Below, in pieces: positions 22,509 to 60,083 of a stretch of 64,000 nt of DNA. Numbering within the stretch: the first letter of the stretch is position 1; every line of letters begins with the position of its first letter. Origin of the DNA: Thermoanaerobaculia bacterium (GTDB lineage: Bacteria; Acidobacteriota; Thermoanaerobaculia; Multivoradales; Multivoraceae). The notes under the pieces were generated by a model that searched no databases, was not told where the DNA came from, and was given only the letters and a program-made list of their open reading frames with translations. A program made the position numbers and the translations under genes. The DNA is taken from NCBI GenBank assembly GCA_963666565.1, contig OY762911.1, positions 4,096,001 through 4,160,000 on the forward strand. The letters are read 5' to 3'.

Positions 22509-23849
22509 GGCGCTTCAGGGTTGTGTGTGGGCACGGAGTGACTCGGGCGCCATGTCGAGTCCGCCGAGATTGAAGTAGATGGCGAGCCGGAAGTGCTTTC
22601 GATTTCGATAGCCATGCGCTCTTCGCTTGATCTTCTCGATCGTCGCGTTGATCCCCTCGGCGTTGGCGCTGGAGATGCCGAACACGGCGGCGTCGATGAC
22701 GGCGTCCCAGTGGTTCCTGACCGTCCTGGCCACCTTCCTGATCGGTTCCAGCCTGCTGCGAATCGCCCAGTTGTACCAGCGCGTCCAGCGTCGCTCGGCC
22801 CACCCGCGGCGCGGGTAGCCCCACGAGTCCCGCGCCATCTCCTTGATCGTCCAGGCCCGGGCCACGCGAAGGTGACTCGCGCGAAGAGCGGCGAAGCGCC
22901 GCTGCTGCGAGCGGGTCATTTCGCCCACTCCCCATCAGCCACAGGTACCGGCTCCGCTTCAGCCCCGGATCCCCTGCTTCGAGCAACGCCCGCTGCTCGG
23001 CGCGCCGAACCAGGTCCACAGCGTGGTTCAGGTGCGCGACGATGTGGAGTCGGTCATGAACGATGTCCGCGTCCGTGCACTCCTCCACGGAAGAGATGTA
23101 GGCCGGCCACATGTCCATCGCCACTTGCTCGATGCCCGCGCAGTTCGTTTCGCCCAGCTCCTCGAAGTAGCCGTCGATGGCCGACCGGCCGCGACCGTCG
23201 GTCACATGGGTCACCACGCCGCGCTCCAGATCGTTGACCACCGTCACGTACTCGTGGCGCCTCCGAAACGACGTCTCGTCCACGCCCAGCAACCGCGGCG
23301 GCGCCAGCCGGCGCCTCGCTAGGCCACGCTCCACGGCCCGACGCTGGGATCCCCGCCGTCTCATCCCAACTCAAGCCCATGCGGCGAGCCACGGCCTGAA
23401 CGCTCGCCTCCCGCAACCACTCGATGACCTCCGCCTCGAACAGCGCCGTGAACAGCGAACCCTCGTCCGCCTAGAGCACCTTCAACTGGTGAACGCCATG
23501 CTCCGCGCAGCGCACCCAAGGCACCTCGGCGTGAACCCGGGTCTGGTGCTGCATCGTGCCCAAATGACGCCAGCGGCGATGCCCGCTGTCGTAGCCCGGA
23601 CACGCCACGCCGCACTCGGGACACCGGGTCTCCCCACGATGCTCGACGTGGATCTCCACCGTCCCGCCCACCACCGGACCGCGCCGCCGCGGATGCGGCT
23701 CGTCCATCCGAAGCACCACCTCCCGCACCCGCCAAGGCGGGTTGATCCCCAACAACCTCTCGAACGTCCTGGCACTCTTCATCCCGCCAGTCTAAGGCCG
23801 ATGGGCGACCGTCCACGCCGCTCTTGCCCCCACGACATCCTGAAGACCC
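22509..23849 (-). mobile_element. Decayed ISL3-family insertion sequence
   Basis: Imperfect terminal IRs GGCGCTTCAGG / GGGTCTTCAGG enclose transposase fragments; no target-site duplication visible. Confidence 0.8.
22515..23782 (-). pseudogene. ISL3 transposase pseudogene (one premature stop, two frameshifts)
   Basis: Zn finger CPECG..RWRH..C..HG; TAG at 23471; GVDETSF, MDMW..Y, DRLH and EGINATIEKIKRRAHGYRN lie in different frames. Confidence 0.88.
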
Positions 23850-47705: not shown

Positions 47706-48145
47706 ACCGCCTGACCGCCTGGACCGTCCACGCGTCGACATTGCTGGTCGGCGGCACGGGTCTCGTCTACGCCTGGATGCGCTACTTCACCGCGCCCGCC
47801 GACGAGTTCGCGGTCGTCGGCCATCCCTGGCAGCCGCACGTTCAGCATCTCCACCTCTGGACGGCGCCCCTGCTCGTGTTCGGCATCGGCCTGATCTGGC
47901 GGGACCACGTCTGGCGGCACTACCGGCGCCGCGTCCGCGACCGCCGCCGCAGCGGGCTCTCACTGCTCGCGGGCTCCGCCCCGATGATCGCCTCCGGCTA
48001 CCTGATCCAGACCGCCGTCGGCGATCTCTGGCGACAGAGCTGGATCGCGCTCCACCTGATCGCGTCGGCGCTGTTCCTCCTGGGCTACGGCGCCCACATG
48101 GTGAAGCCGCTGCGAGCCGCGCTCGCCAGGAGAGAGCCGGCCTGA
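47702..48145 (+). CDS. His-rich membrane protein (possible b-type heme binder, DUF4405-like)
   Basis: Four hydrophobic segments carrying His residues (HLHLW, HVW, LHLI, AHM); GTGA coupling. Confidence 0.6.
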   Translation: MNRLTAWTVHASTLLVGGTGLVYAWMRYFTAPADEFAVVGHPWQPHVQHLHLWTAPLLVFGIGLIWRDHVWRHYRRRVRDRRRSGLSLLAGSAPMIASGYLIQTAVGDLWRQSWIALHLIASALFLLGYGAHMVKPLRAALARREPA

Positions 48146-48203
48146 CGGCCGGCGCGTCTTCCGGCCGCCTTCGGCGCCAGCGGGTCAGAGGACCCGCGCA
48201 CCC
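48134..48203. repeat. Three-hairpin REP module supplying the stop codon of the upstream gene
   Basis: GAGCCGGCCTGACGGCCGGC...GCGGGTCAGAGGACCCGCGCACCC; related modules at 5057 and 12701. Confidence 0.78.
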
Positions 48204-48254
48204 GGCGGACAGTCAGTCCCCGCGCGACGGCACGGCGGAACCGCCGCGAGTGCC

Positions 48255-48809
48255 TTAGCCGGCCGGTTCGCTTTCGGCGCCGGAGTCCTCGATGGAGGTG
48301 GCGTGGTCCGCGGACTCGCCGTGGCCCGCTCCGGGCGGCCCGGGGTGCGGCGTGTTCGTGGTGATCAGGACGACCGAGATCAGCATGCCCGCGATGCCGA
48401 CCCAGAGCAGCGGACTCACCTCCAGTTGGCCGCGGCCGCGGTACAGCGTGTAGAGCGCGGTGACGGTGACCGCGCCGCCGAACACGACCGGCATGACGGC
48501 GTAGGGAATCCGCGCGCCGCCGCTGAACATGCTGAGCGTCAGCGACAGTGCGCCCAGCGCGCCCAGGGTGCCGGCATAGAGACCCCAGATTCCCGAGGGT
48601 CCGGTCGGTTCGAAGCTGTCGCCCATCACCCTCATGCCGATCAGGCCGCCGACGATCGCGATGACGAGATAGGCGATGCCGATGCCGACGTAGGGCTTGA
48701 ACGGCGACATGGACTCGTCCACCAGGCGCGCCCTGCCCAGGACCGGACCGTAGAGGCCCCAGCAGAGCGCCGTGCCGAGAGCGAACACGAAGGGGAGGAA
48801 GTTCTTCAT
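48255..48809 (-). CDS. Small multi-TM membrane protein (DMT/EamA-like)
   Basis: CWGLYGP, GALGAL and MPVVFGGA; about five TM helices. Confidence 0.65.
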   Translation of the reverse strand: MKNFLPFVFALGTALCWGLYGPVLGRARLVDESMSPFKPYVGIGIAYLVIAIVGGLIGMRVMGDSFEPTGPSGIWGLYAGTLGALGALSLTLSMFSGGARIPYAVMPVVFGGAVTVTALYTLYRGRGQLEVSPLLWVGIAGMLISVVLITTNTPHPGPPGAGHGESADHATSIEDSGAESEPAG

Positions 48810-48891
48810 TCGATGATCTCCGGAGTTGCCGACGCGGCGAGCACCTGGGCTTCGCGATCGGGCGGAGTGAGCGAGGTCGGGTCGCGAGAGG

Positions 48892-50406
48892 TTACCTTCT
48901 GAGCAGGGATACGGCGGCGATCGTTCCCGGCAGGCCGGTCAGGCCGCCCCCGGGATGGCAACCGGCGCCGCCCAGCCACAGGCCCTCGACCGGGAGCGGC
49001 TCGCCCGCCCAGGCCGACGCCGTCGGCCGCAGCCACAGGCTCTGCGACGGGTTCATCTCGCCGTGGTGAAGACCGCCGGCCGTGGCGCCGTAGTCCGCCT
49101 CGAAGTCGGCGGGAAGCAGCAGCGCGTGCTCCCGGACCAGGCCGCCGATTCCTGGCGCCCACCGTTCGAGTTCGGCCGCCATCCGCTCCAGAAGCTCCGG
49201 GCCGCCCGCGTCCCAGCCGCCCTCGAGGTCGAACGGCAGGTGGTGCGCCGTCGCCAGCAGCAGGTGGCGTCCCGGCGGCGCCAGCGACGGATCGAGAGCC
49301 GTGGGAAGCGCCGCCTCGATCCACGGACGCTCCGGCAGCCGGCGGTACTTCGCGGCGTCGGCGGCACGTTCAATGAAGTCGGGGCGCTCCGCCAGGACGA
49401 TCCGCCCGGTCAGCGCCGGCCGCTCCAGCCCGGGAAACTCCGGCAGCCCGTCGAGCGACAGGGCCAGCCGCGCGGCGGCGCCGCGGTACTTCACGTTCAG
49501 CAGTCGCCGCACGAAACGCGGTTCGAGGTTCGGCGCGCCGATCAGGTCGAGGAAGGTCACGGCCGGCGTCGCGGTGGAGATGACGGCCCCGGCCTCGATC
49601 CGTTCGCCGTCGGCCAGGCGCACACCGGCGACGCGGCCCGCCTCGACGAGGATGCGGGAGACGGCGGCGCCGGTGCGGATCTCCGCTCCCGAGGCCGCGG
49701 CCGAAGCGGCCAGCGCGGCGGCGAACGCCCCGGCGCCGCCGCGCGACCGCACCACCGGCGCCAGCCGGTCCGAGCCGCTCAGGGCGCAGTGATAGAGCAG
49801 CGGCCAGCCGGTTCCGTTGGCGCGCGGGCCGAGCCCCGTCGCCGGGAGCGCGATGCCCGCGAGACCGGCGAGGAGCGACGGATTCTCGAAGCGCTCGCGC
49901 AGCATCTCGTCGAGCGGCGAACTCAGCACGCGCAGGAGCTCCGGCTCGATGAGCAGCCGCCCCATGTCGGCGAGTTCCGGCGGCCGGCAGAGGAGCGGCT
50001 CGAGCGCAGCGGCGCGCTCGGCCAGTTCGAACACGAAGCCCGGCCAGGCGGCGGCGTCCCGCCGGCTGACCCGGCCCAGGCCCTCGACGGTGCGCGCGAC
50101 CTCCGGCCACAGCACGACGGCGCTCGCGCCTTCCGTCGCCGGCACGGCGGCGACCGCCGGCGCCTCGATCGCCTCCAGCCCGTGCGCGCCAAGTTCCAGT
50201 TCCTCCATCACGGAACGGCGGAACATCCCCAGGTCGTTGCTTCCCACATCGACCCGGTGGCCGGGGATGAGCTGCCGCGTCGAGGCGAGACCGCCGAGTT
50301 CCGGGCGCGCCTCCAGCAGGACGACGTCCCGGCCCGAACGCGCCAGCAGCGCCGCCGCGACCAGTCCGTTGTGGCCGCCGCCTACGATCGCGACCCGGCC
50401 GCTCAC
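48892..50406 (-). CDS. Phytoene desaturase/PYROXD2-like FAD oxidoreductase (second copy)
   Basis: GGGHNGL, D.SLAPPG.H, G.LHHGE and GAGCHPGGG. Confidence 0.85.
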   Translation of the reverse strand: MSGRVAIVGGGHNGLVAAALLARSGRDVVLLEARPELGGLASTRQLIPGHRVDVGSNDLGMFRRSVMEELELGAHGLEAIEAPAVAAVPATEGASAVVLWPEVARTVEGLGRVSRRDAAAWPGFVFELAERAAALEPLLCRPPELADMGRLLIEPELLRVLSSPLDEMLRERFENPSLLAGLAGIALPATGLGPRANGTGWPLLYHCALSGSDRLAPVVRSRGGAGAFAAALAASAAASGAEIRTGAAVSRILVEAGRVAGVRLADGERIEAGAVISTATPAVTFLDLIGAPNLEPRFVRRLLNVKYRGAAARLALSLDGLPEFPGLERPALTGRIVLAERPDFIERAADAAKYRRLPERPWIEAALPTALDPSLAPPGRHLLLATAHHLPFDLEGGWDAGGPELLERMAAELERWAPGIGGLVREHALLLPADFEADYGATAGGLHHGEMNPSQSLWLRPTASAWAGEPLPVEGLWLGGAGCHPGGGLTGLPGTIAAVSLLRR

Positions 50407-50479
50407 GGTGCGCCCCCTTCCCCGCCGGAGGCAGGCGTCTCGGCGTTGTGGCTGCCGCCGACGATCGCGACGCGGCGGC

Positions 50480-52219
50480 TCAACGGCCTTCCCCTTCGCC
50501 TTCCCCGCCGGAGGCCGGCGTTCCGGCGCCTCTCAGATCGCTCAGCACCCGCAGCGCGGCGAGCCGGGCGGGTCCGCCCGAGATGCCGCCGCCGAACTGG
50601 GTCGACGAACCGCACAGGTAGTAGCCGGGCAGCGGCGTCCGGAACGACGCCGCGGCCGGGTCCGGCCGCAGCAGGAAGAGCTGCGAGAGCCGCAACTCGC
50701 CGTGGAAGATGTTGCCGCCCGGAATGCCCGCGATCCGTTCGATGTCGGGCGGCACGAGTACCTGCCGGTGCAGGACCTGGTTCTCGATGCCCGGCGCGTA
50801 CTCGGCGAGCGTCCGCACCACGGCGTCGCCGAACGCCTCGCGTTGCGCGTCGCTCCAGGCCCCGTCCGCCAGCTCGTAGGGCGCGTACTGCACGAAGCAG
50901 GAGAGGACGTGCTTGCCCGGCGGCGCCATGTCCGGGTCGAGGACGGACGGGACGATCATGTCGATGAAGGGCCGCTCCGAGAAGCCGCCGTACTTCGCGT
51001 CGTCGTAGGCGCGGTCGACGTAGTCGAGACCCGGGACGATCGTGATGCCGCCCGACAGGTGGGGGCCCGGTTCCGGCATGCACTCGAAGCGCGGCAGGCC
51101 GGAGATCGCCAGGTTCACCTTGCCGGCGCAGCCGCGGCTCCGCCACCGGGCCGCGCGCTCGACCAGCCCGGCGCCGCCGTCGCCCGGAACGTCGGCCGGA
51201 TCGAGAAGGCCGCCGAGGCTGATCTGCGGCGCCGCCGACGACACGACGACGCCGGCACGAAGCTCGTCGCCATTCGCGAGCGCGACGCCCGACGCCCGGC
51301 CGTCGCGGGCCAGCACCCGCGCAACCGGACAGCCGGTGCGGATCTCGGCGCCGTGGCTTCGCGCCGCCGAGGCGATCGCCGCCGCCACCGCTCCGGTGCC
51401 ACCCTTCTGAAATCCCCACTCCCGGTACACGCCGTCGACCTCGCCCATGTAGTGGTGCAGCAGCACATACGCCGAGCCCGGCGTCCGCGGCGACAGCATC
51501 GATCCGATGATGCTGGAGCTCGAGAGCGCGGCCACGAGCGCGTCCGTCTCGAACCACTGGCCGAGGAAGTCGGCCGAGCTCATCGTCAGCATCTGCACGA
51601 AGGAGCGCAGCCGGGCCGCCGGCAGGTCGAGGAAGTAGCGGGCGATGTCGGCGACCTCCGCCGACACCTCGACGTCCATGTGCTCCGACTCCAGACTCTC
51701 GCCGACCCGGTCGCCGATCGCCGCGGCCAGTTCGTCGGGCGCCGCCCGTTGCAGCCGGTACATCAGGTGGCCCATCCGGCGCATCTCCAGCTTGTACTCG
51801 AACAGGGCCTCGGCGTCGCGCCGCGAGTGGCGGGCGATGTGACGGTACGTCCGCCGCGGATCCGCCTCGCGGAACAGGCAGTCGCCGCCCGGCAGCGGGT
51901 TCAGGGTGCTCGCCGTGGGCACGAGGAACAGGCCGTGACGGACGAGGTCGAGTTCGTGGATGACCTCGGGCCGCAGCAGCGAGACGAGGTAGGAGAAGAC
52001 GCTGAACCGGAAGCCCGGGAAGGCCTCCTCGCTGCGGGTGGCGCCGCCGATGTCCGGCGAGGCCTCCAGCACGACGACGTCGAGGCCGGCGCGGGCGAGG
52101 TAGGCCGCGGCGACCAGCCCGTTGTGGCCGGCGCCGACGACGATCGCGTCGAAGCGGCCGCCGCGGCGGTCCGGCGGTCCGCTGCCGGCTGCGGCCGCCG
52201 CCGTCGCCTCGGTCGTCAT
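50480..52219 (-). CDS. Phytoene desaturase/PYROXD2-like FAD oxidoreductase (first copy)
   Basis: GAGHNGL, GFRFSVFSYLVSLLRPE, AYVLLHHYMG and GGNIFHGE. Confidence 0.88.
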   Translation of the reverse strand: MTTEATAAAAAGSGPPDRRGGRFDAIVVGAGHNGLVAAAYLARAGLDVVVLEASPDIGGATRSEEAFPGFRFSVFSYLVSLLRPEVIHELDLVRHGLFLVPTASTLNPLPGGDCLFREADPRRTYRHIARHSRRDAEALFEYKLEMRRMGHLMYRLQRAAPDELAAAIGDRVGESLESEHMDVEVSAEVADIARYFLDLPAARLRSFVQMLTMSSADFLGQWFETDALVAALSSSSIIGSMLSPRTPGSAYVLLHHYMGEVDGVYREWGFQKGGTGAVAAAIASAARSHGAEIRTGCPVARVLARDGRASGVALANGDELRAGVVVSSAAPQISLGGLLDPADVPGDGGAGLVERAARWRSRGCAGKVNLAISGLPRFECMPEPGPHLSGGITIVPGLDYVDRAYDDAKYGGFSERPFIDMIVPSVLDPDMAPPGKHVLSCFVQYAPYELADGAWSDAQREAFGDAVVRTLAEYAPGIENQVLHRQVLVPPDIERIAGIPGGNIFHGELRLSQLFLLRPDPAAASFRTPLPGYYLCGSSTQFGGGISGGPARLAALRVLSDLRGAGTPASGGEGEGEGR

Positions 52220-53838
52220 TCGCCGGCGCCCCGCGGCGCGGTCGCCGGCGCGGCCCGCCGTTCGCTCCGGCCTTCGCCCTCGGGGCGGCCTTCACGTCCG
52301 GGGCGGCCTTCACGTTCGGGACGGCCGCCCGGAACCAGGGCCGGATCGACCGCCGTCTTGCGCCGCGGCTGGAAGAACGGCCGCTTCACGACTCGCGCCC
52401 GGGCGCGGCGCCGGCCGTAGCCCACCGCGACCTCGACGTCCAGCTCGGTCCCGAGGGCGGCCGCCTCCGCCTCCACCGTGGCGAGGCCGACGTACTTCTT
52501 GAGCACGGGCGAGAAGAACCGGGTGGTGCACTGGCCGACCTGCTCTCCGCCGGCAGCGAACACCGGCGTCGGCTCGCGGCACGCCGGCTCGCCCACGACC
52601 GGCGGGCGCAGGTCGATCTCGGACCACAGCCGCTCCAGCTCGAACCAGTCGACCTCCAGGCCGACCGTCGCCCAGGCCGGTCCGCGGTGGCGTTGCCGTT
52701 CGAGCGCGCGGCGGCCCACGAAGTCGGCCCGCTTGTCGAGCTTCACGGTGAAGCCGAGGCCCGCCTCCGCCGGCGTCACCTTCAGCGCCTCGATCTCGGC
52801 GTGCGCCGCCGACACGTAGTCGACGTCGATCAGCACCAGGCCCGCTTCGGCCCTCGCCATGTCGAGCGCCAGCAGGCCGGCGGGCAGGAGCCCGTGGTCC
52901 CTGCCGGCCTCGGCGAGGGCGTCCCACAGCGCCTCCGCGTGCTCGGCCGCCGCCCAGATCTCGTAACCGAGGTCGCCGGTGTAGCCGGTCCGGGTCACCG
53001 TGACGGGAACGCCCCGACCGTCGCCAGCCAGGTCGCCGAGCTCGCCTTCAGCCAGATCGAAGTAGCGCATCGCGCCGAAGTCGATGCCGGCCACGGCGGC
53101 CTCGGCCACCGCCCGCGCCCGCGGCCCCTGGAGCGCCAGTACGCCCATCTCTTCCGAGACGTCCCGCACCTCGGCGTCCATGCCCCAACCGCAGTCCTCG
53201 AACCAGCGCAGGCAGGGCTCCGCGGCGCTCACCAGGAACCGGTCGGCTTCCAGCCGCTGCACGTTGCCGTCCTGCAGCAGGTGGCCGTCCTCGTTGCACC
53301 ACGAGGAGTACGCGACCCGGCCGACCCGGCAGGCCGTCATGTCCCGCGTCATCACGCGGTCCAGCAGCCGCTCCGCGTCGGCGCCCGCGACCTCGTACTT
53401 GAAGAGCGGCGAGACGTCGAAGAGGGCGGCCGCGTTGCGGACCGCCCAGTACTCGCGCTCGGGCGTCGGTTCGTAGGTCTCGGCGCAGGCGTAGCCCGAC
53501 CAGTCGCGCCATGCGCCGCTCTCGCAGGCCGCCGAGGCGCGCCGATGGAACGGCGTCCGCAGCGGTTCGAGCAACCGCGGACCGTTGCGGCGCGGCGGCC
53601 GCACGCCGCCGCCAAACCCGCTCTCGGGCTGCCACCGGTAGGCCCGGCCGTCCGCGCCGCGGCCGATCAGCCCCTCCGCCTCCAGCACGCCGAGCAGCCG
53701 GTGCGTCGTCGACGGATGGAGCCCGTGCGCCGCCGCCAGCTCCGACAACCGGTGCTCCGGCCGCTCCGCCGTGAACGACCGGTAGAGCGACAGCGCCCGC
53801 TGGATGGCCTGCGTTCCCTGCGGCGCCTGGCGCGACAT
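52216..53838 (-). CDS. IclR-type HTH fused to GcvT-family aminomethyltransferase
   Basis: N-terminal QAIQRAL..LSELA...GLHPSTTHRLL.VL...GLI; then TPFH, EYWAVRN..LFDVS, ALQGP, TRTGYTGDLGYE and R.EAG. Confidence 0.85.
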   Translation of the reverse strand: MSRQAPQGTQAIQRALSLYRSFTAERPEHRLSELAAAHGLHPSTTHRLLGVLEAEGLIGRGADGRAYRWQPESGFGGGVRPPRRNGPRLLEPLRTPFHRRASAACESGAWRDWSGYACAETYEPTPEREYWAVRNAAALFDVSPLFKYEVAGADAERLLDRVMTRDMTACRVGRVAYSSWCNEDGHLLQDGNVQRLEADRFLVSAAEPCLRWFEDCGWGMDAEVRDVSEEMGVLALQGPRARAVAEAAVAGIDFGAMRYFDLAEGELGDLAGDGRGVPVTVTRTGYTGDLGYEIWAAAEHAEALWDALAEAGRDHGLLPAGLLALDMARAEAGLVLIDVDYVSAAHAEIEALKVTPAEAGLGFTVKLDKRADFVGRRALERQRHRGPAWATVGLEVDWFELERLWSEIDLRPPVVGEPACREPTPVFAAGGEQVGQCTTRFFSPVLKKYVGLATVEAEAAALGTELDVEVAVGYGRRRARARVVKRPFFQPRRKTAVDPALVPGGRPEREGRPGREGRPEGEGRSERRAAPATAPRGAGE

Positions 53839-53950
53839 GGCGCGCATGATCGCACATCGTGGAAGGTCCTCGGGTGGAGAGGACCGGTCCGGCGGCGGCC
53901 CCGCCGCCGACGGCGCACGGCGCGGCGCGGCGTTCCGGGCGCCTGCCGGT

Positions 53951-56536
53951 CTACCGGCCCCAGCGATAGTGGAGGCGCGCGTAGTAGTAGCCGCCGCCCA
54001 GGCCCCAGGGCGTGAACTGGCTGTAGGGCAGGCCGAAGCGGTCGGCGAACAGGTCCATGCGGTCCGAGAACGTGTCGAAGACGTTCTGGCCTCCCAGCGC
54101 GAGCGTCGCATCGCGCACGAGCGGGATGCCGACCTCCAGGTCGAGGATGTAGCGCCCGGAGAGCACCGGCGCCTCGGCGCGCCGCACCGAGCGGGCGTCC
54201 AGGTGGTCGACCCAGGACCCGAACCAGTGCAGGCGGGCCAGAACGTCGACCGGCCCGATGCCCTGTTCGACGGCCAGGTTCCACCGCGTCTTCGGCACGC
54301 CGCGCTCCAGGGCGAGCACGTCGCCGGGGCCGAGCAGGGCCGAGTCCTTGGTCACTTCCGTCTCCGTGCGGTTGAACGCCAGACTGAACACGGTGTCGCC
54401 GCCGAGCGCCGGCGGCGCCCAGGTCGAGACGACGTCGATTCCCCGCGTGCGCGTCGAGAAGTCGTTGATGAAGAACCGGAACGAGGACAGCGTGCGCGCC
54501 GACGCGATCCCCTCCGACAGCAGCAGCGCGCGCTCGTCCTCCGCGAGCACGAAGAACTGCGAAAGGGCGAGGCGTTTGTCGACGTCGACGTGGAATGCGT
54601 CGGCGGTAAGCGTGAACGACCCCCTGTCGATCACCAGCCCCGCCGTCGCGTTCGTCGACGTCTCGGGTTCGAGCGGCTGCCCGCCGCGAAGCTGCGCGGC
54701 GAGGAAGGTCGAGGGCACGGTGGCGCTGTCGACCAGGTCGAGCGTCTCCGGGTTGATCGTCGACTGCACGTTGAACACGTTCTGCTGACCGGGCGTGGGG
54801 GCGCGGAAACCGGTGCTGACGCCGCCGCGCACGGCCACGGCGTCGGTCAGCGCGTAGCGGCCCGACAGCTTGCCGTTCGTCGTGTCGCCGAAGATGTCGA
54901 AGTGCTCGAACCGCAGGGCGCCGCCGACCGTCCAGCGGCCGTCCGGGTCCCGCAGTTCCAGGTCGCCGTAGACGGCCGCGTTGGCGCGGTTCCAGGTTCC
55001 GGCCGTGTAGTCGGGGAAGCCGGCGAATCCGTTCGACCCGGAGACGAACCCCTGCGCGGCGTAGGGACCGACCTCCCACGACGGCCGCTCGCCGGCGCGG
55101 ATGGTGAACCGCTCGTCGCGCCACTCCGCGCCGCCGGCCAGATGAAGGCGCTCGCCCACGGCGTAGGAGACGTCGAAGTTCAGGTTCAGTTCGGCCTGCC
55201 GGTAGACGCCCGGGTCGAAGTCGCGCGGCGTCGCCGGGCCGAGCGAGGCGTTGACCGTGTTGAACAGGAAGAAGTCCGCCTCGTGGCTGCCGTAGGCGGC
55301 GCTGACATCCCAGGTCAGGCCGTTCTTCATCGTCCGGCGCAGGCCCGCCACGGCGGAGGCGTCGGTGATCACGCCGCTGAACCAGGGAGTGAAGCCGCCC
55401 GGAGCGACCTCCTGGAAGGTGAAGCAGTTCGGGTCGGCGAACACTTGCGCCAGCGCGTCCTGGTCCGGCCGGTTGCCCGTGATCGTCACGGTCGGGCATC
55501 CCGCCGAGCCGTCCCGCACGCCGTCCCGCGCGTCGAGCACGTCGCCGACGAGCAGCGTGCGGCCACCGTCCAGGCTGAAGATGTTGGCGCGGGTGTTGGG
55601 ATTGCGGTAGTAGAAACCCTGCGTCGCCGTCTTCTCGGCGTAGTTGGCGTGCCCGTACACCTGTGCGCCGTTCCCAAGCAGCTTGCCGAAGTTGCCGAAC
55701 AGCTTCAGGTCGTCCTCGTACTCCGAATCGCCCCAGACCTGCGCCGGGTCGCGGACGTTCGCGTTGCCGGCGGCGATCAGCGCCGCCGCGTCGGCCCGCT
55801 GCACGCTGCGGCTCGTCGGGTCGGCGTTGCCGTACTCCATGCTCAGATGCGCGAACCCGTTCTCGCCCAGGGGCAGCCCGACGTCGCCGGCAATCGTGTA
55901 CGCCCGGCCGTCGCCCGCGCCGTAGCCGCCGCTCTTCACCTCCAGGCTGCCGCCGGAGGGCGAGTCCTTGAGCAGGAAGTTCATGACGCCGGCGATCGCG
56001 TCCGAGCCGTACTGCGCCGAGGCGCCGTCGCGCAGCACCTCGACCTGGCGCAGCGCGGTCGCGGGGATGGTCGAGAGATCGGGCCCCTGGGTGCCGTCGG
56101 TGACGCCGCCGAACCACACCAGGATCGCCGAGCGGTGGCGGCGCTTGCCGTTGACCAGCACCAGCGTGTGGTCGTGCGCCAGGTTGCGCAGGCTGGCCGG
56201 CCTCACGAGCGACGCCGCGCCGCTGATGGGATGCGTGGCGACGTTGAACGAGGGCACGAGGTTCCGCAACTGGTAGTCGAGGCTGGCGGCGCCCTGACGG
56301 GCAACGTCTTCGACCGGGATGGCGTCGATCGGGACGGACGACTCGGTCGCCGACCGGGGTCGCGCGCGGCTTCCGACCACCACGAGTTCTTCGTCGAACT
56401 CCGCGACCTCCTCTGAGACCTCCTCCGAGACCTGTTCCTCCGCGGGCGGCGCCGTCGCCTCGGCCTCCTGGGCGCGAACCGCGACGGGCGCCGCGGACGC
56501 GCCGAGCAGGACGGCGAGCAGGAAGAGACGCGACAC
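53951..56536 (-). CDS. TonB-dependent outer-membrane receptor
   Basis: Signal peptide, ELVVVGSR, LVLVNGKRRH, VEVLRDGASAQYGSDAIAGV and GFRAPT. Confidence 0.92.
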   Translation of the reverse strand: MSRLFLLAVLLGASAAPVAVRAQEAEATAPPAEEQVSEEVSEEVAEFDEELVVVGSRARPRSATESSVPIDAIPVEDVARQGAASLDYQLRNLVPSFNVATHPISGAASLVRPASLRNLAHDHTLVLVNGKRRHRSAILVWFGGVTDGTQGPDLSTIPATALRQVEVLRDGASAQYGSDAIAGVMNFLLKDSPSGGSLEVKSGGYGAGDGRAYTIAGDVGLPLGENGFAHLSMEYGNADPTSRSVQRADAAALIAAGNANVRDPAQVWGDSEYEDDLKLFGNFGKLLGNGAQVYGHANYAEKTATQGFYYRNPNTRANIFSLDGGRTLLVGDVLDARDGVRDGSAGCPTVTITGNRPDQDALAQVFADPNCFTFQEVAPGGFTPWFSGVITDASAVAGLRRTMKNGLTWDVSAAYGSHEADFFLFNTVNASLGPATPRDFDPGVYRQAELNLNFDVSYAVGERLHLAGGAEWRDERFTIRAGERPSWEVGPYAAQGFVSGSNGFAGFPDYTAGTWNRANAAVYGDLELRDPDGRWTVGGALRFEHFDIFGDTTNGKLSGRYALTDAVAVRGGVSTGFRAPTPGQQNVFNVQSTINPETLDLVDSATVPSTFLAAQLRGGQPLEPETSTNATAGLVIDRGSFTLTADAFHVDVDKRLALSQFFVLAEDERALLLSEGIASARTLSSFRFFINDFSTRTRGIDVVSTWAPPALGGDTVFSLAFNRTETEVTKDSALLGPGDVLALERGVPKTRWNLAVEQGIGPVDVLARLHWFGSWVDHLDARSVRRAEAPVLSGRYILDLEVGIPLVRDATLALGGQNVFDTFSDRMDLFADRFGLPYSQFTPWGLGGGYYYARLHYRWGR

Positions 56537-56581
56537 GGCGGGATAATGGCACACGCGGGCCGCCCCGCTAGGATTCGCCCC

Positions 56582-57766
56582 ATGGACACGCTCACGGTTC
56601 CGCGCAAGGCGCCCCGGCCCCTGGACGGCCGGCTCTACACCGACCCCGCCGTCTTCGACGAGGAGATGGAGCGCATCTTCTCGCCGATGTGGGTGTGCGG
56701 CGGGCGGATCGAGGAGCTGGACGAGCCGGGCCGGTTCGTGACCCGCGAGATCGGCGGCGAATCGATCGTCGCGGTGCGAACCGCGGCGGGGCCGGGCGGC
56801 TCGCCGGTCGACCGCGCATCCGCCGGGAACGGGCACGGCGGCCGTGACGGCGACGCCGGTGCCGCGAGCGGCGCGTCCTCCGGTCTGGCCGCGTTCTTCA
56901 ACGTCTGCCGGCACCGCGGCGCCCGGGTGGTCGACGAGTGCGCCGGGAACGCGAAGGTGTTCCAGTGCCCGTACCACGCCTGGACCTACGGGCTCGACGG
57001 CCGGCTCGTCGGCGCGCCGCACATGGACGCCGACTTCGACGCCGCGAGCGCCGGCCTGGCGCCGGTACGGATCGACGCGCTCGGCGGTTTCTTCTTCCTG
57101 TCCCTGGCGCCCGAAGGGCCGCCGCTCGCCGAGGTCGCCGCCGACCTGCCGGATCTCTCGCGGTTCACGCTCGACCGGCTCGTCCGCGGCGCGTACCGCG
57201 AGTACGAGGCGGCCGCCAACTGGAAGATCCTGTGCGAGAACTACAACGAGTGCTACCACTGCGCGGTCGTCCACCCGGAACTCAACCGGATCTCGGACTA
57301 CCGCAGCGGCGGCGACCTGGAGTTCGGGCGCTACTTCGTCGGCGGACCGATGACGCTCAACGACGGCTGCAACACGATGTCGGCGTCCGGCTACAGCGAC
57401 CGTCCCGACCTGCCGGCCATCGGCGCCGCCGACCGGACCTCGGTCCAGTACTACCACGTCTACCCCAACCTGCTGATCAGCCTGCACCGGGACTACGTGA
57501 TGACCCACATCCTGTGGCCGGTGGAGGCGAACCGGACCCGGATCGTCTGCGAGTGGCTGTTCGATCCCGAAACCGTCGCCGCGCCCGATTTCGACCCCTC
57601 CGACGCGGTCGACTTCTGGCACCTGGTCAACAGCCAGGACTGGGACGTCTGCGCCCGCACGCAACTCGGCGTCGGCTCGCGCGGCTACCGCCCCACCGCC
57701 TACGAGGGCAGCGAGGCCTGCCTCCAGGTCTTCGACGGCTGGTATCTCGATCAGATGGGCCTGTGA
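56582..57766 (+). CDS. Rieske non-heme iron oxygenase alpha subunit (GbcA/Stc2/CntA-like group)
   Basis: NVCRHRG..CPYHAW Rieske motif; NWK..ENYNECYHC..VHPE; QDW..C. Confidence 0.88.
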   Translation: MDTLTVPRKAPRPLDGRLYTDPAVFDEEMERIFSPMWVCGGRIEELDEPGRFVTREIGGESIVAVRTAAGPGGSPVDRASAGNGHGGRDGDAGAASGASSGLAAFFNVCRHRGARVVDECAGNAKVFQCPYHAWTYGLDGRLVGAPHMDADFDAASAGLAPVRIDALGGFFFLSLAPEGPPLAEVAADLPDLSRFTLDRLVRGAYREYEAAANWKILCENYNECYHCAVVHPELNRISDYRSGGDLEFGRYFVGGPMTLNDGCNTMSASGYSDRPDLPAIGAADRTSVQYYHVYPNLLISLHRDYVMTHILWPVEANRTRIVCEWLFDPETVAAPDFDPSDAVDFWHLVNSQDWDVCARTQLGVGSRGYRPTAYEGSEACLQVFDGWYLDQMGL

Positions 57767-57897
57767 CCGGCCGGCCACCGAGCCCGAGAACCCGGCGCCG
57801 CGGGTGCGCGGCGCCGGTCCGCGTGCCGGTCGGCATCCGCCCCGGCCGTGCCGCCGCGGTGCGCGGATCCCGGCGACGCGGCGGCTGAGGACTCGCC

Positions 57898-59331
57898 ATG
57901 TGGCTCCGGGAACACGCGCTGATCCTCGTCCTGTTCGCCCTCTACACGGGCGTCCTGGTCCATCACGCGCTGATCGGGCAGCGACGCACCCGCGACCTGG
58001 CCGACTTCCTGGTCGGCGGCCGCTCGCTCGGCGGCGTCATCCTGGGCGTCTCCTTCTTCGCCACCTACGCCAGCACGAACAGCTTCATCGGCTTCGCCGG
58101 CAGGGCCTACGCCTCCGGCATCGCCTGGCTGCTGATCGTCCCGACCGCGGTCGTCCTGTCGTTCGTCGCCTGGGCATGGCTGGCGCCGAGGCTCCGCGGC
58201 GTCACCGAGATCCTGGGCTCGGTGACCATCCCGGACTACATCGGCTTCCGCTTCAACAGCCAGGCGGCCCGCTTCGCCGCGGCCCTGATCGTCATCTTCT
58301 CCAGCTTCCTCTACATGACGGCCGTGTTCAAGGGCATCGGCTCGCTGCTCGTCGAGCTGCTCGACCTGAGCTACGGCCTGTCGCTGTTCGTCGTCGTCCT
58401 CATCGTCTGCCTTTACACGATGGTCGGCGGCTTCCACTCCGTGGCGCGCACCGACTTCGTCCAGGGCATGCTGATGACGCTCGCGGCCGTGCTCATGTTC
58501 TTCGCGATCACGCGCGCCGCGGGCGGCATCGGCCGGCTCGCCGACCTGGCGCAGGTCGGCGACGGCGCCCTCGCCCGCTGGGACACCGCGCAGCCGCTCG
58601 GGATGCTGATCGGCGTGGTCTTCGCCTCCACCGTCAAGCTGATCGTCGAGCCGCGGCAGCTCTCCCGCTTCTACGCCCTGGAGACCGAGGGAGCGGCGAG
58701 AAGCGGCCTCGTCGTTTCGACCTTGAGCTTCCTCGTCGTGTTCAGCCTGCTGGCGCCGCTCGGCCTTTACGCCCACTTCGTCGTCGGACAGGGCGTAGCC
58801 GACACGGACCAGGTCATCCCGATGATGCTGAGCGATCCGGCCATCTTCCACCCGGCGATCCAGGCGTTCCTGTTCCTGGCCCTCGTCTCCGCCGCCATGT
58901 CCTCGCTCGACAGCGTCCTCCTCGTGATGGCCTCGACCTTCCAGCGCGACCTGCTCGGCCTCTTCGTCCCGGCCGACGACCGCCACGCGGTCCGCAACAC
59001 CCGCGTGTGCGTCGTACTGTTCGCGGCGATCACCGCGATCCTCGCCATCGACCCGCCCGGCGGCATCGTCGAACTGACGTCGTTCTCGGGCGCCCTCTAC
59101 GCCGCCTGCTTCCTGCCCTCGCTTGCCCTGGGCCTCACCTGGCGCCGAGGCAACGGCGCGGCGGCGCTCTGGTCCTTCGCCGCCGGCGGCGCGACGCTGG
59201 GGCTGTGGATGCTGCTCGACATCCAGGGCATGCACGCGGTCTTCCCGGCGATGGCGATCTCGTTCGCCGCCTACTGCATCGCCGCCTGGCTGGCGCCCGA
59301 GGCGAAGGCGGCGAAGGGGTTGTTCGGGTAG
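57898..59331 (+). CDS. Sodium:solute symporter family protein
   Basis: DFLVGGRS, STNSFIGFAG.AY, YT..GG..SV..TD.VQ and SAAMSSLDS. Confidence 0.9.
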   Translation: MWLREHALILVLFALYTGVLVHHALIGQRRTRDLADFLVGGRSLGGVILGVSFFATYASTNSFIGFAGRAYASGIAWLLIVPTAVVLSFVAWAWLAPRLRGVTEILGSVTIPDYIGFRFNSQAARFAAALIVIFSSFLYMTAVFKGIGSLLVELLDLSYGLSLFVVVLIVCLYTMVGGFHSVARTDFVQGMLMTLAAVLMFFAITRAAGGIGRLADLAQVGDGALARWDTAQPLGMLIGVVFASTVKLIVEPRQLSRFYALETEGAARSGLVVSTLSFLVVFSLLAPLGLYAHFVVGQGVADTDQVIPMMLSDPAIFHPAIQAFLFLALVSAAMSSLDSVLLVMASTFQRDLLGLFVPADDRHAVRNTRVCVVLFAAITAILAIDPPGGIVELTSFSGALYAACFLPSLALGLTWRRGNGAAALWSFAAGGATLGLWMLLDIQGMHAVFPAMAISFAAYCIAAWLAPEAKAAKGLFG

Positions 59332-59436
59332 CGGCGGTAGCGGACTCGCTTCTCGTCTCAATCTCCGAACGAGGGACGTCCCTCGCGGTCATCGGTGTAA
59401 ACTAGTCGAACCAGTTTTCTCACTCAGGAGTTCAGC

Positions 59437-59682
59437 ATGCGGATCGTCGGCGCCTTTGAAGCCAAGACCCACCTCTCCAGCCTCCTCGATGCTGCCGAGA
59501 ACGGTGAGGTCATAACGATCACCAAGAGAGGACGGCCGGTCGCACGGCTCATGCCTCCCGCGCCCGTGGATCGAGTGAAGGCCAAACGGGCCGTGCGGAA
59601 CATCCGGGCACTGCGCCGGAAGATCGGCTGGTCCGGAACCGTCGACGAGATCCTTGCTCTTCGCGACGCCGGACGCCGATGA
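59437..59682 (+). CDS. Phd/YefM family antitoxin
   Basis: VGAFEAKTHLSSLL..AENGE.ITITKRGRPVARL. Confidence 0.9.
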   Translation: MRIVGAFEAKTHLSSLLDAAENGEVITITKRGRPVARLMPPAPVDRVKAKRAVRNIRALRRKIGWSGTVDEILALRDAGRR

Positions 59683-60083
59683 GCGCTCCGGTGCTCGACT
59701 GCTCGGTCGCCTGCGCCTGGCTACTTGGCGACGAGAGCGTGCCCGGCGCCGACCGGATCCTCGAACAGGCCGCGAACCACGGCGCATCGGCACCCGGCCT
59801 GTTCTGGGCGGAACTGCGCAACGCCCTTGTCATGGCGGAGCGCCGATGTCGACTCGCTCCCACGCAGACGACGTCAGCGCTGGCCGAGATCGAGCACCTC
59901 GACATTGAGTTGGACGGGGAGCCCGATGAGGAGACGACGCTGCGCCTGGCCCGCGAGCACCGGTTGACCGTGTACGACGCGCTGTACCTGGAACTGGCAA
60001 TCCGTCAGAAACGAGAGCTCGCCACTTTTGACACGGCACTTCAACGGGCCGCGGAGTCCGAGGGCGTCACAGTATGCCGTTGA
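59679..60083 (+). CDS. vapC: VapC-family PIN toxin
   Basis: VLDCS, E..NAL, TVYDALYLELA and LATFD; ATGA overlap with the antitoxin. Confidence 0.88.
   Translation: MSAPVLDCSVACAWLLGDESVPGADRILEQAANHGASAPGLFWAELRNALVMAERRCRLAPTQTTSALAEIEHLDIELDGEPDEETTLRLAREHRLTVYDALYLELAIRQKRELATFDTALQRAAESEGVTVCR

Follow-up and report, generated by a model that had tools for sequence, protein, structure and literature searches.

Which genes belong together at a bacterial locus that joins two proteins named as phytoene desaturases to a folate-binding protein and a Rieske oxygenase, and what might they do? We address this question in a 64,000-nucleotide stretch of DNA, hereafter the window, from Thermoanaerobaculia bacterium (GenBank assembly GCA_963666565.1, contig OY762911.1, positions 4,096,001 to 4,160,000). 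Six neighbouring genes in the window encode two flavin adenine dinucleotide (FAD) proteins, here called FlavA and FlavB, a GcvT-like protein with an N-terminal helix-turn-helix (HTH) domain (HTH-GcvT), a TonB-dependent receptor, a Rieske oxygenase, and an SSS symporter (Table 1). A preliminary description of this DNA had treated all six as one candidate demethylation system for methylated amines. Our analysis retains its trio of GcvT with the two flavoproteins, its resemblance to PYROXD2 in the case of FlavB, and its Rieske type. It does not retain FlavA as a PYROXD2-type protein, nor the receptor and the symporter as conserved parts.

Conservation of the GcvT-FlavB-FlavA trio

We identified at least 601 confirmed FlavB relatives in a scan of species-representative genomes, the closest of which is 90% identical and comes from a Vicinamibacteraceae metagenome-assembled genome. 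The FlavB family is very large: all 8000 candidates scored in one search matched at E <= 0.001, and a scan of 1.84 billion cluster representatives with FlavB returned 19,535 matches at the same threshold. Gene neighbourhoods were counted at the best 80 loci of the species-representative scan, which hold the closest FlavB relatives rather than a random sample and come in part from related genomes that are not mutually independent. These loci span six phyla, namely Acidobacteriota, Gemmatimonadota, Chloroflexota, Pseudomonadota (Burkholderiales), Ca. Eisenbacteria and Ca. Dormiibacterota, with a single locus each for the last two.

A second flavoprotein is encoded directly downstream of FlavB at 75 of the 80 loci, GcvT is encoded at 70, and both are present at 67. 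Two of the five loci without an adjacent second flavoprotein carry one 2-4 kb away, and another two are cut by a contig end. At six of the ten loci without GcvT, FlavB lies no more than 600 nt from the start of the locus, at a contig edge. The other neighbours are an APC amino-acid permease (36 loci), a Rieske oxygenase (23 loci, 10 of them with a protein at least 35% identical to that of the window), PurU (21 loci), a threonine-aldolase-like lyase (6 loci), an SSS symporter (1 locus) and a TonB-dependent receptor (0 loci). The permease, PurU and the lyase were found by de novo clustering of open reading frames (ORFs), with cluster representatives scanned against Pfam and NCBIfam.

The trio is also widespread among close relatives and on plasmids. 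FlavB matches at E <= 1e-50 were found in 29 of 41 related genomes (the source genome included), each time with a second flavoprotein in tandem. Of the other genomes of the genus, 23 of 24 carry the trio, as do 5 of the 16 others from the order. In 20-kb stretches from other families of the order, the arrangement GcvT-FlavB-FlavA is retained, and a divergent Rieske gene is present in two of four informative cases (L031 and L032). Plasmids of Rhizobium sp. SL42, Shinella zoogloeoides and Parasedimentitalea marina carry the trio in the order FlavB-FlavA-GcvT. The trio frames overlap in the Rhizobium and Shinella plasmids; in Parasedimentitalea the frames abut (FlavA and GcvT) or are separated by 11 nt. 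Neighbours of the plasmid trios include genes for TetR regulators, ABC importers, aminotransferases and Rieske-type oxygenases.

The arrangement of GcvT, FlavB and FlavA is therefore not due to chance, and this core recurs across families, orders and phyla. The neighbour counts over the 80 loci, the genus loci and the plasmids identify the trio as the conserved unit, which is smaller than the six-gene proposal. The Rieske gene is a recurrent companion of the trio, and the SSS symporter and the TonB receptor are local additions. The conserved gene set of the preliminary description thus holds for the flavoprotein pair with GcvT (67/80) and fails for the receptor (0/80), the symporter (1/80) and, as a constant member, the Rieske oxygenase (23/80).

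PurU, the amino-acid permeases, the aminotransferases and the threonine-aldolase-like lyase fit a pathway that breaks down an N-methylated amino compound as far as a primary amine and passes the one-carbon units to the folate pool. The trio would then add a widespread route of methylated-amine turnover, mis-annotated as "phytoene desaturase", in Acidobacteriota, Gemmatimonadota, Chloroflexota and Pseudomonadota. We found no published description of the bacterial trio in the literature searched, a scope that excluded subscription journals and bioRxiv supplements.

Other genes and contexts were seen in the course of the survey. In 19 loci from Terriglobia (L049-L121; for example L079:14170-15711), PurU is followed by a frame of about 514 aa, which may be a real gene or an ORF-calling artefact of high-G+C DNA. 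This frame and a 289-aa frame, both near the trio in Terriglobia, have no Pfam or NCBIfam match, and both may be artefacts of this kind. On a Sphingobium plasmid (AP027331.1, 6840-9632; L139), a lone FlavB-like gene, 40% identical, follows a 396-aa gene annotated as '(2Fe-2S) ferredoxin'. Neither a second flavoprotein nor GcvT is nearby; this is another context, and another branch of the family.

FlavB, FlavA and the PYROXD2 family

The preliminary description had likened a segment of the flavoproteins to human PYROXD2. That segment corresponds to FlavB residues 69-97 and aligns with GFKFSR.SYV.SLLRP of animal PYROXD2. The PYROXD2 sequences that we compared come from oyster, mayfly and flatworm (clusters named PYROXD2 by NCBI or UniRef) and from a choanoflagellate. 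In BLASTP comparisons FlavB is 37-40% identical to animal PYROXD2 over its full length (residues 13-568, 336-372 bits), and the oyster cluster ranks 11th among the 1.84 billion representatives with FlavB as query. FlavA shows 28-32% identity (157-194 bits). The likeness to PYROXD2 thus stands for FlavB and falls for FlavA.

A phylogeny points the same way. We built a quick IQ-TREE tree (LG+G4) of 69 rows, rooted on two acidobacterial CrtI proteins that score above cut-off. One clade of 40 rows, with 100% SH-aLRT support, unites 25 FlavB proteins, the 4 PYROXD2 sequences and 11 bacterial representatives. All 25 FlavA-type rows fall outside this clade as a long-branched grade. PYROXD2 does differ from the trio proteins in its position: together with other bacterial representatives, it branches next to the FlavB clade rather than within it. 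Among the 129 columns invariant in the 25 FlavB proteins, 96 are retained in at least three of the four PYROXD2 sequences. By sequence kinship and by clade, FlavB belongs to the PYROXD2 family and FlavA does not.

FlavA is, judged from its sequence, a fast-evolving divergent paralogue of FlavB. FlavA-type proteins keep 37 of the 129 FlavB-invariant columns (in at least 90% of them), and the GxGxxG FAD dinucleotide motif is retained. Several observations point indirectly to an association between the two flavoproteins. First, their genes are in tandem at 75 of the 80 loci. Second, their frames overlap on the Rhizobium and Shinella plasmids. Finally, we identified five natural FlavB::FlavA fusion proteins of 1037-1064 aa, which are rare and some of which may be gene-calling artefacts. 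FlavA and FlavB may accordingly form a heterodimer, and FlavA would be either the partner of FlavB or a second demethylase for the next step.

Database names ('phytoene desaturase family', CrtO-like) would make FlavA and FlavB carotenoid or isoprenoid desaturases or ketolases. The best NCBIfam models of the flavoproteins are indeed CrtO and crtI_fam, and the structures nearest to the FlavB model (mean pLDDT 80.5, pTM 0.83) are the gamma-carotenoid desaturase 4rep, 3ka7 and the CrtI structure 4dgk. The scores, however, are far under the curated cut-offs: 121 bits for FlavA and 102 bits for FlavB against 238 for crtI_fam (TIGR02734), and 167 and 241 bits, respectively, against 1000 for CrtO (NF045689). 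In our quick tree, a branch of length 0.89 with 100% support splits the two true CrtI outgroup rows from the 67 others. The genome has no crtI_fam match above cut-off, and its sole SQS_PSY match lies at 1.83 Mb, 2.3 Mb from the window (4.10-4.16 Mb). We also found no carotenoid-gene domain among the 34 other window ORFs scanned, in agreement with the preliminary description, and the conserved neighbours of the flavoproteins are GcvT, PurU and permeases rather than carotenoid genes. We therefore regard a carotenoid or isoprenoid function as extremely improbable, and the earlier view that the flavoproteins are not CrtI or CrtO enzymes is borne out.

The structural neighbours of FlavB are all distant. 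Identity to the three nearest structures is at most 19%, as it is to the next matches, many of them flavin amine oxidases (nicotine oxidoreductase, putrescine oxidase and MAO), and we found no solved structure of a close FlavB relative. Full-length matches of both flavoproteins are to Amino_oxidase and CrtI-like models. Matches to the DAO family (PF01266) are confined, in their best-scoring stretches, to the dinucleotide-binding part at the N-terminus (residues 4-78 and 24-63). FlavB is likely the catalytic amine dehydrogenase or oxidase.

PYROXD2 itself, a mitochondrial flavoprotein, has long awaited a function, and its biochemical role is described as unassigned (PMC8777681). Published studies associate the human PYROXD2 locus with trimethylamine and dimethylamine (PMC3169529), with N6-methyllysine and N6,N6-dimethyllysine (PMC9730628, PMC7878905) and with N2-acetyl,N6,N6-dimethyllysine (PMC13352909). 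PYROXD2 has been an orphan since at least 2011, with metabolite associations among the strongest reported for its locus, and its biallelic variants cause a severe infantile mitochondrial disorder (PMC3169529, PMC9730628, PMC8777681).

Bacterial relatives of PYROXD2 share an operon with GcvT, often beside PurU, amino-acid importers and N-demethylase-type Rieske enzymes. The conserved FlavB-GcvT operon thus provides a concrete hypothesis for PYROXD2, namely flavin-dependent N-demethylation with the one-carbon unit captured on tetrahydrofolate. Its main value is that the PYROXD2 question becomes directly testable.

The GcvT partner and a proposed folate-linked N-demethylation

The GcvT body of HTH-GcvT best matches the C-terminal folate-binding part of trimethylamine N-oxide (TMAO) demethylase (272 bits in NCBIfam, 197 bits for PDB 9q5a). 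The NCBIfam match to this enzyme, Tdm, spans positions 388-760 of a 763-position model whose cut-off is 1100; the N-terminal half of Tdm is absent from the window protein. Next come T-proteins and the folate domains of sarcosine oxidase alpha (1vrq, 2gag), DMGDH (5l46, 4pab) and DMGO (1pj5). Weaker matches are to DmdA (114 bits), DesA (64 bits) and LigM (63 bits).

We modelled a complex of FlavB (residues 20-568) with the GcvT body (residues 95-505). It scored 0.75 (0.75, 0.80 and 0.71 in individual runs), against 0.00 for the best of three controls. In the calibration of the method, 58 of 80 solved complexes reached this mark, as did 2 of 110 mismatched pairs; these counts apply only approximately here, since we supplied our own alignments. 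At least 80% of contacts were common to the runs, with a partner pLDDT of at least 91. The predicted interface holds residues that are invariant across phyla (FlavB 261-264; GcvT W403 and 447-452; the GcvT alignment excludes rows L033, L050 and L060). We know of no solved complex of this family pair, so recall of a known structure by the model seems unlikely. The models thus support binding of GcvT by FlavB, and for this pair they agree with the flavoprotein-GcvT complex that had been envisaged.

The pairing of a GcvT-fold protein and a flavoprotein is characteristic of oxidative N-demethylation in which tetrahydrofolate takes up the one-carbon unit; DMGDH, SARDH, DMGO and sarcosine oxidase are examples. 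By analogy, the trio would work like DMGDH or sarcosine oxidase but differ in flavoprotein family and architecture. FlavB comes from the CrtI/PYROXD2 branch (PF01593) rather than the DAO family, the folate module of the trio is a separate chain, and there are two paralogous flavoproteins. A PurU neighbour, found here at 21 of 80 loci, is shared with known amine pathways that release one-carbon units.

With moderate confidence we read the core as a split flavoprotein N-demethylase that is coupled to tetrahydrofolate and whose step follows that of a GbcA/Stc2/CntA-type Rieske oxygenase. FlavB would oxidise the N-methyl C-N bond of a secondary or tertiary amine, and the GcvT-like protein, docked on FlavB, would take the one-carbon unit as 5,10-methylene-tetrahydrofolate rather than freeing formaldehyde. 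FlavA would either be required by FlavB as its partner or carry out the next demethylation. A quaternary ammonium nitrogen has no lone pair and is therefore closed to flavin amine oxidases; where a Rieske oxygenase is present, it would probably remove the first methyl group of such a substrate. The SSS symporter in this genus, together with the TonB receptor in some members, would import the compound. The role proposed for the GcvT-like protein is one-carbon capture on tetrahydrofolate, possibly plus autoregulation.

Candidate substrates are N-methylated amines and amino acids, for instance a betaine or methyl-lysines. The genome has seven loci with GcvT domains (including L122-L124, at about 1.855 Mb, 3.306-3.310 Mb and 4.780 Mb of G000:C1). 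Two DAO-GcvT fusions of the DMGDH/SARDH type (838 and 856 aa) are encoded, one of them beside a DmdA-like protein, as is a 1027-aa SoxA-like protein that adjoins a PutP-like symporter. Because of the two fusions and the SoxA-like protein, dimethylglycine and sarcosine are less likely substrates. This folate-linked demethylase repertoire is large for an acidobacterium.

A second possibility is that the trio is folate-linked but catalyses another reaction. It could oxidise other C-N, C-S or C-O bonds, with GcvT in one-carbon or aminomethyl transfer as in T-protein, DmdA or LigM/DesA, or GcvT could have a YgfZ-like accessory role. Members of the GcvT family do catalyse S- and O-demethylation and aminomethyl transfer, the window protein has the weak matches to DmdA, DesA and LigM given above, and the flavoprotein fold leaves the substrate class unspecified. 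The S- and O-demethylases of the family, however, need no flavoprotein, and the known GcvT-flavoprotein pairings (DMGDH, SARDH, DMGO and sarcosine oxidase) to our knowledge all act on N-methyl groups. The trio is also flanked by amino-acid permeases, aminotransferases and N-demethylase-type Rieske enzymes. The PYROXD2 associations cited above concern N-methyl compounds throughout. A reaction other than N-demethylation therefore appears unlikely.

Several points weigh against a folate-coupled N-demethylase that follows a Rieske step. Each chemical step is inferred for every member of the family, as are the substrate, the electron acceptor and the regulatory role proposed for HTH-GcvT. The score of the complex is the model's own confidence, not a measurement. 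The fold of FlavB is equally common to carotenoid desaturases and amine oxidases, and its top structural match is 4rep. Dimethylglycine and sarcosine, the expected products of a GbcA-like enzyme, may have enzymes of their own in this genome. Four loci (L084, L091, L111 and L114) have 10 kb of upstream DNA yet no GcvT nearby. A search of the genome for PF00175 found no GbcB-type reductase for the Rieske protein. Finally, the Rieske gene is missing within 10 kb at 57 of the 80 loci, and the SSS and TonB genes hardly occur beside the trio outside the genus; the six genes are thus not one universally conserved system.

A more far-reaching version of the N-demethylase proposal is, in our estimate, rather doubtful. 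The FlavB/PYROXD2 family as a whole would be tetrahydrofolate-coupled demethylases of free N-methyl amines such as N6-methyl- and N6,N6-dimethyl-lysine, and the operon would reveal the function of human PYROXD2. PYROXD2 might then be the 'N6-methyl-lysine oxidase', an activity that is not known to have been cloned. From a trimethylammonium compound, the Rieske oxygenase would remove the first methyl group, FlavB and FlavA the second and third, and one GcvT would collect the one-carbon units. Electrons from the flavoproteins might feed the reductase-less Rieske oxygenase, and the GcvT protein of this genus would be the DNA-binding regulator of its operon.

HTH-GcvT is unusual in that its enzyme subunit carries a fused DNA-binding domain of the IclR type. 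The fusion is confined to this lineage, where we identified 29 clusters with both PF09339 and PF01571 and at least 58% identity in the HTH part. GcvT proteins of the trio in other phyla have about 395-400 aa, begin at the GcvT domain and have no HTH. Pfam reports no IclR effector domain in HTH-GcvT, and GCV_T and GCV_T_C fill the remainder of the protein. GcvT thus replaces the usual effector domain of IclR regulators, and the DNA binding of HTH-GcvT is predicted only. PutA joins enzyme and repressor functions in one protein. HTH-GcvT likewise carries an N-terminal HTH on an enzyme-like body beside a divergent promoter region. Having acquired this head, it may by analogy regulate its own divergent promoter region. 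In six of eight genus loci (window, L036, L037, L038, L039 and L042), a conserved CACGATGTGnGATCAT-like motif precedes the HTH-GcvT start by about 10-25 nt and may be an operator or promoter element. It is absent in L040 and L041, where the stop codon of the receptor gene abuts the GcvT start.

The window GcvT protein ends (52216-52330, minus strand) in a tail of some 35 low-complexity residues that is rich in Pro, Gly, Arg and Glu and runs into the overlap with the FlavB start. This tail is missing from most orthologues (503-505 aa).

The Rieske oxygenase, transporters and locus layout

The six genes were confirmed by Pfam domains and coordinates in the arrangement first described, and the limits of the described region coincide with gene ends (48892 with the FlavA stop, 59331 with the SSS stop). 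The G+C content of the region is about 70-76%. Reading frames were chosen by third-position G+C, a heuristic in high-G+C DNA, and then checked against Pfam and NCBIfam. The HTH-GcvT start is the ATG common to its orthologues. The GcvT and FlavB genes overlap by 4 nt, and a gap of 73 nt separates FlavB from FlavA. Between the divergent starts there are 11 to 47 bp, according to which start codons are taken, a range that includes the 45 bp reported earlier.

Table 1. Features of the locus, with positions in the window and family matches (E-values).
Feature	Coordinates	Strand	Matches and remarks
FlavA, CrtI-like/amine-oxidase-fold FAD protein, 504 aa	48892-50406	-	Amino_oxidase 1.8e-19, NAD_binding_8 (Pfam)
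FlavB, PYROXD2-type FAD protein, 579 aa	50480-52219	-	Amino_oxidase 1.8e-17 (Pfam)
HTH-GcvT fusion	52216-53838	-	HTH_IclR 3.3e-10 (residues 16-63), GCV_T 2.3e-57, GCV_T_C 1.4e-13
CACGATGTGnGATCAT-like conserved motif	53845-53862	-	adjoins the HTH-GcvT start on its upstream side
TonB-dependent outer-membrane receptor	53951-56534	-	Plug 1.8e-16, barrel 1.2e-28
Rieske non-haem-iron oxygenase, alpha subunit	56546-57766	+	Rieske 5.6e-13, Ring_hydroxyl_A 1.2e-47
SSS symporter, PutP/PanF-like	57898-59331	+	SSF 1.2e-52

The Rieske protein contains Rieske and catalytic domains, and the CxH...CxxH and HxxxxH motifs are visible in its translation. Its best NCBIfam model is GbcA (186 bits, below the equivalog cut-off of 670), and its best solved relatives are 3n0q, Stc2 (3vca, 133 bits), 4qup and CntA (6y8j, 114 bits). 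These matches uphold its earlier placement in the GbcA/Stc2/CntA group. It differs from those enzymes in its sub-cut-off GbcA score, in a low-complexity insert and in that no partner reductase was found. The insert, of about 30 residues (approximately 80-112; window 56780-56880, plus strand) and rich in Gly, Ala, Ser and Asp, interrupts the Rieske domain and splits the family match.

The preliminary description had found no Rieske reductase at the locus, and we confirm that no FNR-type reductase is encoded in the window (34 other ORFs scanned). A GbcB-type reductase was likewise not found in the genome, where PF00175 has only two matches, one NqrF-like and one PyrK-like; other ferredoxin and reductase types were not searched. 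Both the NqrF-like protein (Fer2, FAD_binding_6 and NAD_binding_1, followed by ApbE) and the PyrK-like protein were rejected as dedicated partners of the Rieske protein.

That no GbcB/CntB-type reductase was found raises the possibility that the flavoproteins serve mainly as the electron-transfer partner of the Rieske oxygenase, which is the only Ring_hydroxyl_A oxygenase of the genome. Such a role would leave unexplained the 57 of 80 trio loci that have no Rieske gene within 10 kb, as well as the presence of PYROXD2 in animals. The tightly conserved partner of FlavB, and the one predicted to bind it, is GcvT and not the Rieske protein. We consider this role very unlikely.

The SSS symporter scores under the cut-offs of both the PutP and PanF models. 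Its gene adjoins the Rieske gene in all seven other genus loci compared, and it is probably the importer in this genus. The TonB receptor is encoded in four of the eight genus loci (window, L039, L040 and L041) and is absent from L036, L037, L038 and L042. With no receptor at any of the 80 wider loci and a symporter at one, the proposal that these two proteins are parts of the system was not sustained.

These distributions bear on whether the six genes act together at all. The trio might be independent, with the Rieske, SSS and TonB genes its neighbours through genome history in the genus; the counts at the wider loci (Rieske 23/80, SSS 1/80, TonB 0/80) and the four genus loci without a receptor are in line with this. 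Yet Rieske genes accompany the trio repeatedly, in Acidobacteriota, Gemmatimonadota, Eisenbacteria and Alphaproteobacteria, and do so in varied orders and orientations. Within the genus, the Rieske-SSS pair is divergent from HTH-GcvT in all eight loci, with or without the receptor. In L040 and L041 the abutting receptor stop codon and GcvT start imply co-transcription of these two genes. Complete independence of the trio from its neighbours is thus improbable, and we retain the Rieske step, where its gene is present, in the proposed N-demethylation.

Additional features of the window were recorded. A 184-aa ORF (48255-48809, minus strand) directly downstream of FlavA has no Pfam or NCBIfam match; its hydrophobic stretches, assessed by eye, suggest a multi-pass membrane protein. 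Genus members share this ORF at 86-98% identity, and it adjoins FlavA in seven of seven compared, inverted in L036. A scan of positions 48000-60000 (about 72% G+C) returned no promoter-like sites and a single terminator-like site, inside the SSS gene, against 3.1 expected. Finally, positions 22518-22934 (minus strand) encode a 139-aa fragment of an ISL3-family transposase that matches only the C-terminal half of the Pfam model.

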